Shown: positions 53,657-59,062 of the stretch, piece by piece | How positions within the stretch are numbered: position 1 is the first letter of the stretch | Layout of the letters: every line of letters starts with the position of its first letter | DNA from: Escherichia coli | GTDB lineage: Bacteria > Pseudomonadota > Gammaproteobacteria > Enterobacterales > Enterobacteriaceae | Length of the DNA stretch: 64,000 nt | Direction: 5' to 3' (one strand) | Assembly (NCBI RefSeq): GCF_003018115.1 | Contig: NZ_CP027457.1 | Made by a program: the position numbers and the translations under genes | Notes under the pieces: model-generated | Seen by the model: only the letters and a program-made list of their open reading frames with translations | What the model was told of the DNA's origin: nothing | The model's database searches: none

Positions 53657-56071
53657 TCACCCCGCAAACTGCCTGAACAGCGCCTTACCCTTAACCAGTC
53701 TCGCGCCCAGCCAGCCGCCGAAAAGCGACAGCAGCAGCGCACCGCAGCACGGCAGAACAATCCACAATCGCCAGTCTGGCTCCCACGGGAAATCAAACAC
53801 TTTCGCCTGCAACACTGCCAGCGCCGTTTCCGCACCAATTGCGGCCACCAGGCCAGAAACAAACCCAAGCATGGCGAACTCGCACCACAATGTCGTGCGC
53901 AGCAGTTTTTTCCCCGCACCGAGTGTGCGCCACACCACCAGCTCCTGATGACGCTGACGCATTCCCACCTGCACCTGTGCCAGCAACAGCAACATACCGC
54001 AGGCGGTGACCAGCACCACCATCACCTCCAGCGCCCGACTTACCTGCTCCAGCACCTGACCGACCTGTTTTAAAATCGCGCCAATGTCTAACAGGCTAAT
54101 GGTCGGGAACTGGCGGTTGAGTTGCGTCAACATGCCGTTGCCATTCTCCCAGCGGAAACTGGTAAGCCAGCTCTGCGGTTGCCCGTCTAATGCCCCTTCC
54201 GGGAAAATAAAATAGAAATTAGGCCGCAAACTTTCCCAGTCCACTTTGCGCAGGCTGGTCACTTTAGCGCGGAACTCCTGGGTATCGCCCATAAAAGTCA
54301 CGGTATCTCCGAGGGTAACGTTTAAGCGTTTCGCCAGCCCCTCTTCCATCGACACTTCATCAGCTTTTGGCGGCCAGTTACCGGCGACAATCGGATTATG
54401 ATCGGGCCGCGTATTTTGCCAGGTAAGATTGAGTTCGCGGTTGAGCGCCTCATCTTCATTGCCTTCTGTCGGCTTGCCGTTAATCGCCGTCAGCCGCGCT
54501 CGCACCACCGGATAAAACGATTCCGGGACTATCTGATGTTCCGCGAGGAACGCTTTTAGCGGCGTAACCTGTTCTGTGGCGATGTTGATTAAAAAGTAGT
54601 TCGGGCTTTCTGGCGGTAGCTGTTGTTGCCAGCGGTCTAGCAGATCGCCACGCAACACCAGCAGCAGCGCCAGCAGCATAAAGGAGAGCGAAAAAGCTGA
54701 AAGCTGGCTTAACGTTGACCACGGCTGACGTAACAGGCGGCTAACCGCCAGGCGCAGAGGCAGCGATTTCAGCGTCATGCGGCGAAGTACATTCAGCAGC
54801 ATCCAGCCCAGCACACCGCACAGCAAAGCCAGTACTACCGCGCCCGCCAGCACCGCCCAGAGCAGCATACTGCCGCCCATTAATCCGGCAAGCAGCAGCA
54901 CAACCACCACACTGACAATCGGCAGATAAAACTTCAGCGGCCAGACGTTCGCTACCACATCATTACGTAATACGCGTAAAGGCTGCGTTGCCAGCAACAA
55001 GCGGTACGGTCGTAGCCCCACCAGCAGCGAGATGACTGTCATGGTGCCAAGCGCCCACAGCCACGGCCAGAGACTGGCAGGCGGTAGTGCAGCAGGCAGA
55101 ACGGGCTTGAGCAGCACCATCAACACGTTTTCGAACAACAGGCCTATCGCCCCACCGGTAACGGCTGAAAGCGCCAGCACCATCAACCACTGACCGACGA
55201 TTAGCTTACGCAGTTGCGCTCGCCCTGCCCCCAGCGTTTTGAGGATCGCCACCAGATCGTAGCGACTGCGACAGTAATGATTCATCGCTACCGCCACTGC
55301 TGCCACTGCCAGCAGCAAGGTCAGAAGCGCCGAAAGCAGCAGGAACTGTTGCGAGCGTTCCATCGATCGCCCCAGCGCGCCTTCGTCCTGTTCCAGACCG
55401 TACCAGCGTTGTTCGGGTTTAAGCTGAGGTAACAACCATTTCTCATAGCTGTCGAGCTGGTTCTCGCTGCCGCCGAATTTATAGCGCCAGGTGACCCGAC
55501 TCCCCGGCTGCACGGCTCCGGTTTTATCGACATCCGCCAGATTCATCATCAGACGCGGAGCCATCTGGAAGGGGTTAAAACCGGAATCCGGTTCCTGAAT
55601 CACTTCTCCGGCAATCCGCAAGGTGGCATCGCCCACGTCAATGGTGTCGCCCGTTTTCAGGTTAAGCAGTGCCATCAGGCGTGGGGCCAGCAATACGCTG
55701 CCCGCCTGCGGTTTCAGGCCAGGGGGATTGGTTTGCAGATCGCCATACATCGGGTAGATATCATCCACCGCTTTGACGTTCGCCAGCTGCGGTGTGTCGC
55801 CTGCAAATGTCATGGTGGCGAAAGTCAGCTGCTTGCCGACTTTCAGGCCGCGCTTTTGCGCTTCCTCCAGCCACGCTTGCGGCACTTCGCGCGAACTGCG
55901 CAACGCCCGATCGCCCGACATAAACTCCCGGCTTTGCTGGCTTAAGCCCTTCTCCATGCGATCGCTGATATTGCCCAGCGCCAGCACGCAGGCCACCGCC
56001 AGGCTTAGCGCCAGCCAGACAATTAATAACGACGGCGAGCGCCATTCGCGCCAGAACCAACGTGCAATCAT
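53657..56071 (-). CDS. ybbP: ABC transporter permease (FtsX-like, duplicated), YbbP
   Basis: 804-aa polytopic protein, 4-nt overlap with the upstream ATPase gene. Confidence 0.9.
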   Translation of the reverse strand: MIARWFWREWRSPSLLIVWLALSLAVACVLALGNISDRMEKGLSQQSREFMSGDRALRSSREVPQAWLEEAQKRGLKVGKQLTFATMTFAGDTPQLANVKAVDDIYPMYGDLQTNPPGLKPQAGSVLLAPRLMALLNLKTGDTIDVGDATLRIAGEVIQEPDSGFNPFQMAPRLMMNLADVDKTGAVQPGSRVTWRYKFGGSENQLDSYEKWLLPQLKPEQRWYGLEQDEGALGRSMERSQQFLLLSALLTLLLAVAAVAVAMNHYCRSRYDLVAILKTLGAGRAQLRKLIVGQWLMVLALSAVTGGAIGLLFENVLMVLLKPVLPAALPPASLWPWLWALGTMTVISLLVGLRPYRLLLATQPLRVLRNDVVANVWPLKFYLPIVSVVVVLLLAGLMGGSMLLWAVLAGAVVLALLCGVLGWMLLNVLRRMTLKSLPLRLAVSRLLRQPWSTLSQLSAFSLSFMLLALLLVLRGDLLDRWQQQLPPESPNYFLINIATEQVTPLKAFLAEHQIVPESFYPVVRARLTAINGKPTEGNEDEALNRELNLTWQNTRPDHNPIVAGNWPPKADEVSMEEGLAKRLNVTLGDTVTFMGDTQEFRAKVTSLRKVDWESLRPNFYFIFPEGALDGQPQSWLTSFRWENGNGMLTQLNRQFPTISLLDIGAILKQVGQVLEQVSRALEVMVVLVTACGMLLLLAQVQVGMRQRHQELVVWRTLGAGKKLLRTTLWCEFAMLGFVSGLVAAIGAETALAVLQAKVFDFPWEPDWRLWIVLPCCGALLLSLFGGWLGARLVKGKALFRQFAG

Positions 56072-56754
56072 GCTTCCTCCTGCAACTGCCCGTTCACCAG
56101 CCGTAAGCAGCGGTCGCAGCGTGCCGCCAGTTGCAGGTCGTGGGTCACCATAATCAACGTGGTGCCATGCTCACGGTTGAGGGAAAACAGCAGGTCGGCA
56201 ATTTTATCACCCGTCTGGCGGTCAAGGTTGCCGGTGGGTTCGTCGGCAAACAGCACATCAGGTCGACCGTTAAAGGCTCGTGCCAGCGCCACTCGTTGCT
56301 GTTCACCGCCGGAAAGCTGTGCCGGAAGATGATCCAGACGTTTACCCAGCCCTAACTGTTCGAGCAACGCTTTCGCTCCGTTACGACTTTCCGCGCTACT
56401 CTCACCGCGCAGCAGAGCCGGAAGCTCGACGTTTTCCAGCGCGTTAAGGGTAGGAATTAACATAAATGACTGAAAAACAAAGCCGACGTGCTTCGCGCGC
56501 AACTTTGCCCGCGCTTCTTCGTCCATATTATGTAGCGGTTGTCCCACCAGACTCACTTCGCCACTGCTGCCGTCATCAAGCCCGGCGAGGATCGCCAGCA
56601 AGGTTGACTTACCCGATCCCGACTCGCCCACCAGTGCGATGGTCTCGCCACGTTTGACAACCAGCTCAACTCCGGTGAGGATGGAGAGTTCATGCTCCCC
56701 CTGACCGACGGACTTCTTAAGATGATGAACTTCAACAATGTTTTCCGCTGGCAT
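56068..56754 (-). CDS. ybbA: ABC transporter ATP-binding protein YbbA
   Basis: Walker A (GESGSGKST), ABC signature (LSGGEQQR), Walker B (ILFADEPTGNLD). Confidence 0.9.
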   Translation of the reverse strand: MPAENIVEVHHLKKSVGQGEHELSILTGVELVVKRGETIALVGESGSGKSTLLAILAGLDDGSSGEVSLVGQPLHNMDEEARAKLRAKHVGFVFQSFMLIPTLNALENVELPALLRGESSAESRNGAKALLEQLGLGKRLDHLPAQLSGGEQQRVALARAFNGRPDVLFADEPTGNLDRQTGDKIADLLFSLNREHGTTLIMVTHDLQLAARCDRCLRLVNGQLQEEA

Positions 56755-57348
56755 TTGCCCTTCCTGTTCCTGGTCCTGTTAACCTTCCGTGCCGCCGCAG
56801 CGGACACGTTATTGATTCTGGGTGATAGCCTGAGCGCCGGGTATCGAATGTCTGCCAGCGCGGCCTGGCCTGCCTTGTTGAATGATAAGTGGCAGAGTAA
56901 AACGTCGGTAGTTAATGCCAGCATCAGCGGCGACACCTCGCAACAAGGGCTGGCGCGCCTTCCGGCTCTGCTGAAACAGCATCAGCCGCGTTGGGTGCTG
57001 GTTGAACTGGGCGGCAATGACGGTTTGCGTGGTTTTCAGCCACAGCAAACCGAGCAAACGCTGCGCCAGATTTTGCAGGATGTCAAAGCCGCCAACGCTG
57101 AACCATTGTTAATGCAAATACGTCTGCCTGCAAACTATGGTCGCCGTTATAATGAAGCCTTTAGCGCCATTTACCCCAAACTCGCCAAAGAGTTTGATGT
57201 TCCGCTGCTGCCCTTTTTTATGGAAGAGGTCTACCTCAAGCCACAATGGATGCAGGATGACGGTATTCATCCCAACCGCGACGCCCAGCCGTTTATTGCC
57301 GACTGGATGGCGAAGCAGTTGCAGCCTTTAGTAAATCATGACTCATAA
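56722..57348 (+). CDS. tesA: Acyl-CoA thioesterase I / lysophospholipase L1 (SGNH hydrolase)
   Basis: Translation from MMNFNNVFRWHLPFLFLVLLTFRAAAADTLLILGDSLSAGY... with GDSL motif. Confidence 0.92.
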   Translation: MMNFNNVFRWHLPFLFLVLLTFRAAAADTLLILGDSLSAGYRMSASAAWPALLNDKWQSKTSVVNASISGDTSQQGLARLPALLKQHQPRWVLVELGGNDGLRGFQPQQTEQTLRQILQDVKAANAEPLLMQIRLPANYGRRYNEAFSAIYPKLAKEFDVPLLPFFMEEVYLKPQWMQDDGIHPNRDAQPFIADWMAKQLQPLVNHDS

Positions 57349-58147
57349 AGCAACGGAGATCCTGACAGGTAAAGTTATGCAAAAATCGGTCTTAATTACC
57401 GGATGTTCCAGTGGAATTGGCCTGGAAAGCGCGCTCGAATTAAAACGCCAGGGTTTTCATGTGCTGGCAGGTTGCCGGAAACCGGATGATGTTGAGCGCA
57501 TGAACAGCATGGGATTTACCGGCGTGTTGATCGATCTGGATTCACCAGAAAGTGTTGATCGCGCAGCCGACGAGGTGATCGCCCTGACCGATAATTGTCT
57601 GTATGGGATCTTTAACAATGCCGGATTCGGCATGTATGGCCCCCTTTCCACCATCAGCCGTGCGCAGATGGAACAGCAGTTTTCCGCCAACTTTTTCGGC
57701 GCACACCAGCTCACCATGCGCCTGTTACCCGCGATGTTACCGCACGGTGAAGGGCGTATTGTGATGACATCATCGGTGATGGGATTAATCTCCACGCCGG
57801 GTCGTGGCGCTTACGCGGCCAGTAAATATGCGCTGGAGGCGTGGTCAGACGCGCTGCGCATGGAGCTACGCCACAGCGGAATTAAAGTCAGCCTGATCGA
57901 ACCCGGTCCCATTCGTACTCGCTTCACCGACAACGTCAACCAGACGCAAAGTGATAAACCAGTCGAAAATCCCGGCATCGCCGCCCGCTTTACGTTGGGA
58001 CCGGAAGCGGTGGTGGACAAAGTACGCCATGCTTTTATTAGCGAGAAGCCGAAGATGCGCTATCCGGTAACGCTGGTGACCTGGGCAGTAATGGTGCTTA
58101 AGCGCCTGCTGCCGGGGCGCGTGATGGACAAAATATTGCAGGGGTGA
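57338..58147 (+). CDS. ybbO: Short-chain dehydrogenase/reductase YbbO
   Basis: 269-aa SDR with N-terminal nucleotide-binding motif TGCSSGIG. Confidence 0.9.
   Translation: MTHKATEILTGKVMQKSVLITGCSSGIGLESALELKRQGFHVLAGCRKPDDVERMNSMGFTGVLIDLDSPESVDRAADEVIALTDNCLYGIFNNAGFGMYGPLSTISRAQMEQQFSANFFGAHQLTMRLLPAMLPHGEGRIVMTSSVMGLISTPGRGAYAASKYALEAWSDALRMELRHSGIKVSLIEPGPIRTRFTDNVNQTQSDKPVENPGIAARFTLGPEAVVDKVRHAFISEKPKMRYPVTLVTWAVMVLKRLLPGRVMDKILQG

Positions 58148-58165: not shown

Positions 58166-59062
<897 letters not shown>

Follow-up and report, generated by a model that had tools for sequence, protein, structure and literature searches.

Head-to-head coding overlap of tesA and ybbA in Escherichia coli, with the tesA promoter embedded in ybbA

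Where two divergent genes appear to share their first codons, it must be asked whether both start codons are used, where the two promoters lie and whether the arrangement serves the genes concerned. This question is raised by tesA and ybbA, which occupy opposite strands and point away from each other (open reading frames, PGAP and K-12 annotation) in a 64,000-nucleotide stretch of E. coli chromosome (the window, to whose positions the coordinates below refer). Gene order at the locus is ybbP (53657-56071, minus strand), ybbA (56068-56754, minus strand), tesA (56722-57348, plus strand, 208 aa in the K-12 annotation), ybbO (57338-58147, plus strand) and cnoX. A segment of 1.1 kb around tesA/ybbA was found in 5416 of 5426 complete E. 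coli genomes at ≥ 95% identity.

Full identity to solved structures (PDB 9GE6-9GE8) and matches to NCBIfam equivalogs show that TesA and YbbA are products of real protein-coding genes. YbbA (228 aa), the ATPase of the YbbAP type VII ABC transporter, aligned with equivalog PRK10584 over residues 1-228 of 228 and is identical to PDB 9GE6_B over its full 228 aa. TesA, an esterase that acts on lipids in the periplasm, matched PRK10528, and YbbA, YbbP and TesA all matched their equivalogs above cutoff. The locus encodes together a MacB/LolD-like ATPase, a 10-TM FtsX-type permease and an SGNH esterase, the set of proteins that makes up YbbAP-TesA. TesA and YbbAP form a physical complex (PLoS Biol 2025, PMC12646458).

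In the RefSeq annotation of K-12 MG1655, tesA occupies 519139-519765 (minus strand) and ybbA 519733-520419 (plus strand), and the 33 nt that they share correspond to 56722-56754 of the window. In strain F9792, PGAP places the tesA start at the second ATG, which gives an overlap of 30 nt. The original prediction of a coding overlap of about 30 nt, between a tesA start at about 56722 (plus strand) and a ybbA start at 56754 (minus strand), thus had accurate coordinates. The two frames are codon-aligned in antisense, so that a Met codon in either gene is read as His in the other. The tesA strand reads ATG ATG AAC TTC AAC AAT GTT TTC CGC TGG CAT (TesA MMNFNNVFRWH) and the opposite strand ATG CCA GCG GAA AAC ATT GTT GAA GTT CAT CAT (YbbA MPAENIVEVHH). 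As translated, the overlap would encode the n-region of the TesA signal peptide (MMNFNNVFRWH) and residues 1-11 of YbbA. It lies in tolerant segments of both proteins: the n-region of TesA, and in YbbA five residues ahead of the domain together with the start of the first strand. Taken as a whole, the evidence is best explained by a genuine, conserved head-to-head overlap of two genes whose products work together (probability about 0.85).

The start of ybbA is the ATG at 56754, the only possible start in E. coli. It is the first start codon past the upstream in-frame stop, and the first 25 codons of the E. coli gene contain no further ATG, GTG or TTG. Since the equivalog covers residues 1-228 and the LolD, MacB and FtsE profiles begin at YbbA residue 5-7, there is no room for a downstream start. 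The ATG was kept in all 80 Enterobacteriaceae loci compared. A Shine-Dalgarno core, AGGAA (56761-56765, minus strand), lies 7-11 nt 5' of it in invariant or nearly invariant columns, and is the antisense of Phe-Leu codons in the core of the TesA signal peptide.

The start of tesA was approached by comparing tesA loci from 80 Enterobacteriaceae species, 74 of which were aligned. The open frame of the gene runs from 56692 to 57348 (plus strand), with in-frame ATG codons at 56692, 56722 and 56725 and a TTG at 56755. Only the ATG at 56725 was invariant (74 of 74 species). Position 56723 was T in 58 species and C in 16, and the ATG at 56722 is accordingly ACG in 16 of 74 (about 20%), where YbbA has Arg11. 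The codon for YbbA His10, which opposes the ATG at 56725, was CAT in all 74 species, whereas that at the His21 position (His being its most common residue) was CAT in 39, CAC in 24 and a non-His codon in 11. The difference is a sign of selection for ATG on the strand of tesA. Conservation and the mapped transcription start site (TSS; see below) suggest that tesA is translated from the ATG pair 56722/56725, of which the second is conserved, and the ATG at 56722 may also be used in E. coli. On the same grounds, the start codons in use appear to place the 5' coding ends of both genes on shared nucleotides. With the conserved tesA start at 56725 (a product of 207 aa), the conserved core of the overlap is the 30 nt from 56725 to 56754.

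Initiation of tesA further upstream, at the first ATG of the frame (56692-56694), would extend the precursor to 218 aa and the overlap to 63 nt. GGAG precedes this ATG by 5 nt in E. coli, the frame is open to it and the corresponding position (-36) is ATG, GTG or TTG in most species. However, the TSS at 56690 would leave it a leader of 2 nt, and the GGAG (56683-56686) lies upstream of the TSS and is not transcribed, which disfavours the 218-aa form. Neither element is kept: across species the fourth base of GGAG (56686) was A in 41, T in 14, G in 11 and C in 8, and position 56692 was A in 39, G in 24, C in 9 and T in 2, making the codon ATG, GTG, CTG or TTG. The start-like codon is merely the antisense of YbbA His or Gln 21, and the would-be extension is free to vary at positions opposed to 4-fold sites (56698, entropy 1.47). 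A tesA start at 56692 is thus very improbable. The original prediction had drawn its feature from 56692, a position that holds as the first ATG of the open frame and probably not as a start codon.

It could also be argued that there is no real overlap, the annotated start being a longest-ORF artefact and tesA starting at the TTG at 56755-56757, which abuts the ybbA ATG and is the sole start in frame that would avoid it. A shorter tesA of 594 nt, starting from a non-overlapping GTG that matches 56755, is annotated in K. pneumoniae MGH78578, and a clear Shine-Dalgarno sequence is absent before 56722/56725. Nevertheless, several Citrobacter species have TGG (Trp) at 56755 and a few other species GTG, and initiation there would leave a signal peptide (M-PFLFLVLLTFRAAA) that lacks a charged n-region. 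All 74 aligned species keep the ATG at 56725, though the opposing His codon could be CAC, and the TSS at 56690 gives a normal leader of 32-35 nt to the ATG at 56722/56725. The TTG is not conserved as a start codon, and its use is the least probable of the readings considered here. A downstream, non-overlapping tesA start, which would have removed the overlap, is unlikely.

N-terminal sequencing, which had been suggested for confirming the tesA start, cannot identify it in mature TesA because the signal peptide is cleaved; this is a general limitation of N-terminomics for secreted proteins. The signal peptide is encoded by 56722-56799 (plus strand), and mature TesA begins with ADTLL at 56800, as do the chains in PDB 1IVN and 9GE8_T. 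Among translation-start data, the TetRP supplement has no entry for tesA or for ybbA, and the texts of the Ribo-RET preprint and TRAINSPOTTER do not include tesA.

The start of tesA is often misplaced by gene callers. In Klebsiella, Enterobacter and Raoultella its frame is open for 245-286 codons upstream, antisense to ybbA (loci L009, L023, L026, L034, L047, L052, L056, L057 and L071). Over-long 'TesA' calls are found in public protein sets; one of them (P0001) has 402 aa, TesA itself being residues 196-402.

A sigma-70 promoter contained entirely within ybbA codons 25-34 drives transcription of tesA. The promoter (TTGACA-17-GAGGAT, plus strand; -35 at 56654-56659 and -10 at 56677-56682) was the best-scoring plus-strand match of a 1.25-kb region in a weighted scan, and 11 of its 12 hexamer columns were invariant in 74 species. 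The -10 hexamer is GAGGAT in E. coli and AAGGAT in most other genera. A scan of 56300-57200 for strict consensus promoters gave no match, because GAGGAT agrees with the consensus at just three of six positions. From the promoter a TSS was predicted near 56689-91 before the published one was found, at 56690 (plus strand; NC_000913.2 519021, minus strand; 45 reads, 32-nt leader; Kim et al. 2012, PMC3415461). The 51-mer that Kim et al. give upstream of the TSS matches 56640-56690 exactly. The TSS falls within ybbA codon 22, 64 nt inside ybbA, with the promoter directly upstream, which bears out the expectation that the tesA promoter would be embedded in the coding sequence of its partner.

The 5' leader of tesA (56690-56721, plus strand) is antisense to ybbA codons 12-22 and is nearly invariant, 4-fold sites 56704, 56707, 56710 and 56719 included. 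The invariant block of the ybbA 5' region contains GTTTGACAA. No Rfam family matched 56000-57700 at E ≤ 1, so no known RNA family explains the conserved leader.

Constraint on synonymous positions was concentrated at the junction. Mean third-position entropy of ybbA in 74 species was 0.15 bits for codons 1-10, 0.41 for codons 11-20, 0.63 for codons 21-30 and 0.81 for codons 31-40, against a median of 1.10 and a minimum of 0.80 among 10-codon windows elsewhere in the gene. The value of 0.15 bits in the overlap compares with about 1.0-1.1 in the remainder of both genes. Constraint extends past the overlap into the region of the leader and promoter: 4-fold sites in ybbA codons 11-35 had a mean entropy of 0.44, with 5 of 13 invariant, compared with 1.26 and 1 of 79 elsewhere (Mann-Whitney U test, P = 4.9e-5; Fisher's exact test, P = 1.4e-4). 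For tesA codons 11-35 the extra synonymous constraint was marginal (0.96 versus 1.26, P = 0.05). In two loci ybbA is seemingly frameshifted, those of Citrobacter amalonaticus AUH_CA_2023_1 (L042) and Leclercia adecarboxylata NCTC13032 (L027). These were not accepted as true pseudogenes; the loci are collinear with E. coli, and the indels of 1-3 nt are probably assembly errors.

Transcription in the ybbA direction is weak, and the datasets that report it disagree. Four TSSs on the minus strand lie within tesA (56909-57323). Those at 56909 and 57141 were supported by two reads each (Kim et al. 2012, PMC3415461). In Cappable-seq data the ybbA-direction TSSs were at 57096 (RRS 2.45), 57323 (RRS 1.55) and 57543, inside ybbO (RRS 1.63), and there was no TSS on the K-12 plus strand within 340 nt upstream of ybbA. 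For these assignments window position is 575711 minus the U00096.2 coordinate, and the offset of +776 from U00096.2 to U00096.3 was obtained by comparing tesA coordinates. The Romero 2014 supplement has no entry for tesA or ybbA. A weighted scan over 74 species found no conserved, well-formed promoter at the ybbA-direction TSSs. Three candidates were rejected as neither conserved nor well formed: CAGAAT around 56815-56820, TTGACA at 57086-57081 and TTTGCA-18-AACAAT at 57134-57105. All reported TSSs for ybbA are inside tesA or ybbO, so that the embedding of its promoters in partner coding sequence, also part of the original prediction, stands as well. Published TSS maps, of the kind that had been proposed as a check, place the tesA TSS inside ybbA and the weak ybbA-direction TSSs inside tesA or ybbO.

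At the RNA level the two genes overlap far beyond 30 nt, over hundreds of nucleotides. tesA-ybbA is one of 16 divergent excludons detected in at least 50% of 58 MG1655 RNA-seq samples (ExcludonFinder, PMC12288877). Double-stranded RNA captured with p19 includes complementary pairs of 21-22-nt RNAs, offset by 2 nt, at five positions in tesA (Huang et al. 2020, PMC7373196). By exact mapping, one such duplex (56757-56779, both strands) covers the ybbA Shine-Dalgarno sequence and tesA codons 12-19, and others map to 56823-56850, 57006-57027 and 57195-57216. Since duplexes extend to 57216, a transcript in the ybbA direction must have its start upstream of 57216 and cross much of tesA in antisense. 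In the p19 gene tables tesA had values of 182-2396 compared with 4-86 for its neighbours, which is suggestive only, as the meaning of the columns is presumed. It is likewise suggestive that, in what are presumed to be sense/antisense pairs, the second value was about equal to the first for tesA only. The locus therefore shows two marks of a divergent excludon: overlap of 5' transcripts, from the TSSs in the literature and the ExcludonFinder list, and RNase III-type double-stranded RNA in the p19 pairs, its dependence on RNase III at this locus being presumed.

The age of the arrangement was assessed in distant TesA homologues, sampled at 41-70% identity, by reading their contigs for neighbours. 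A divergent ABC ATPase with an FtsX permease was present wherever the contig was long enough; for one homologue (L090) the neighbour was cut at the contig end. Start-to-start distances, by gene call, were -33, -2, 0, +17, +21, +25 and +52/55 nt. The homologue at -33 nt has 70% identity and the same design (MMNFKNVFRWH/MPAENVLEVHH), and that at -2 nt shares CATG. Among the genomes sampled, the overlap of 30-33 nt was found only in Enterobacteriaceae and in this one closer relative (70% identity). In no case would two promoters fit between the genes, so the placement of promoters within the coding sequence of the partner is probably ancestral.

These observations suggest how the locus may work. 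Transcription of ybbAP would be low and would begin at weak starts well within tesA or past it, with a leader antisense to much of tesA. tesA and ybbAP RNAs would pair and be cut by RNase III. The stronger tesA promoter would meet weak ybbAP transcription face to face, giving polymerase interference and antisense decay, with the net effect that tesA is favoured and ybbAP kept low. The coding overlap of 30-33 nt itself would most likely be a tolerated, now frozen by-product of an ancestral back-to-back layout.

Alternatively, the overlap may be an active device, a divergent excludon selected for reciprocal coupling of tesA and ybbAP through polymerase collision and RNase III, either for setting the TesA:YbbAP ratio or for switching between the two. 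In favour of this are the RNA-seq listing of tesA-ybbA as a divergent excludon, the p19 duplexes across tesA with the ybbA Shine-Dalgarno sequence among them, the extreme conservation of both the junction and the tesA promoter within ybbA, the back-to-back starts kept in distant lineages and the fact that TesA and YbbAP are partners in a complex. However, the conservation can be explained by double coding together with an ordinary promoter and leader, and distant homologues without overlapping starts show that the coding overlap is dispensable for the arrangement. No experiment showing reciprocal expression of tesA and ybbAP was found. Mutual exclusion of the excludon type also sits awkwardly with the products: subunits of one complex are expected to be co-expressed, and exclusion would be an odd logic for two parts of one machine. 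Selection for such a device is therefore rather unlikely, and the overlap as a frozen by-product is preferred. A narrower proposal, that the antisense ybbAP leader and the tesA promoter in ybbA form a conserved circuit of cis-antisense RNA and transcriptional interference, setting the ratio of the soluble periplasmic hydrolase to a membrane transporter of low abundance, is more speculative still. If it were true, an excludon-type mechanism would control stoichiometry within one complex instead of switching between opposing functions.

Divergent excludons were first described in Listeria. Like them, tesA-ybbA has divergent transcripts that overlap at their 5' ends and recorded fragments of double-stranded RNA. 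It differs from them in that typical excludons overlap in long 5' UTRs and encode opposing functions, whereas here the coding sequences themselves overlap and the products are partners. The asd/yhgN and rsd/nudC pairs yield the same RNase III-type duplexes of 21-22 nt from divergent 5' overlap (Huang et al. 2020, PMC7373196). In contrast, tesA is not discussed in that text and its duplexes run through most of the gene, indicating a long antisense leader.

Divergent overlap of coding sequences is very rare in E. coli, and here it joins genes of a single machine, YbbAP-TesA. In K-12 only 2 of 663 overlapping adjacent gene pairs were divergent, the rarest class, and overlaps by a multiple of three were hardly ever seen (Huvet and Stumpf 2014, PMC4161906). 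tesA-ybbA shares 5' coding ends, as does this head-to-head class, and is both divergent and a multiple of three. The two divergent pairs are unnamed in that study (PMC4161906); tesA-ybbA is presumably one of them.

The overlap itself is already known from the K-12 annotation, the 2025 YbbAP-TesA structure paper (PMC12646458) and the ExcludonFinder list (PMC12288877). As it has been both annotated and remarked on in print, little is added here as discovery. The locus is the same as the K-12 b0494/b0495 junction and YbbAP-TesA (PMC12646458), with proteins identical to PDB 9GE6-9GE8 and nothing differing. What is added is the conservation of the start codons, the conserved tesA promoter embedded in ybbA and the start-to-start spacing in distant homologues. 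Specialists may find three points useful, namely the second ATG as the conserved start, the conserved promoter in ybbA with its matching TSS and the antisense transcription over most of tesA. The same bases carry a promoter and a 5' leader, two start codons, a Shine-Dalgarno site and the sequences for a signal peptide and for the N-terminus of an ATPase. A deletion or tag placed at the 5' end of one gene will hit the partner or its promoter, and so will the commonly used leaderless 'tesA when made at the native locus. For annotation, it is also relevant that the frame antisense to ybbA is open for up to 286 codons in some genera, as the 402-aa 'TesA' illustrates.

The neighbouring junctions are compact too. 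ybbA and ybbP overlap by 4 nt (ATGA, 56068-56071), a classic layout for translational coupling, and Kim et al. (PMC3415461) report a weak internal ybbP TSS inside ybbA (NC_000913.2 519490, 3 reads). On the other side, the co-directional tesA and ybbO overlap by 11 nt (57338-57348), with the ybbO ATG (57338) within the last tesA codons. This overlap is identical in the K-12 and PGAP annotations and fits a tesA-ybbO operon.

Inside tesA, on the tesA strand, a perfect TATAAT (57148-57153) follows a poor -35 hexamer, CTGCCT, at a spacing of 18 nt (57124-57153, plus strand). Eight of the 12 hexamer columns were invariant in 74 species, and the element could be an internal promoter for ybbO. Its complement adjoins the weak ybbA-direction TSS at 57141.

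Further out, the open frame of cnoX (ybbN) has an ATG at 58172 (296 aa), 12 codons 5' of the annotated start at 58208 (284 aa). Directly beyond ybbP lies an Rhs element (rhsD in K-12; RHS core protein, positions 1-429 of locus L001), and the window upstream of about 53200 is probably Rhs sequence.
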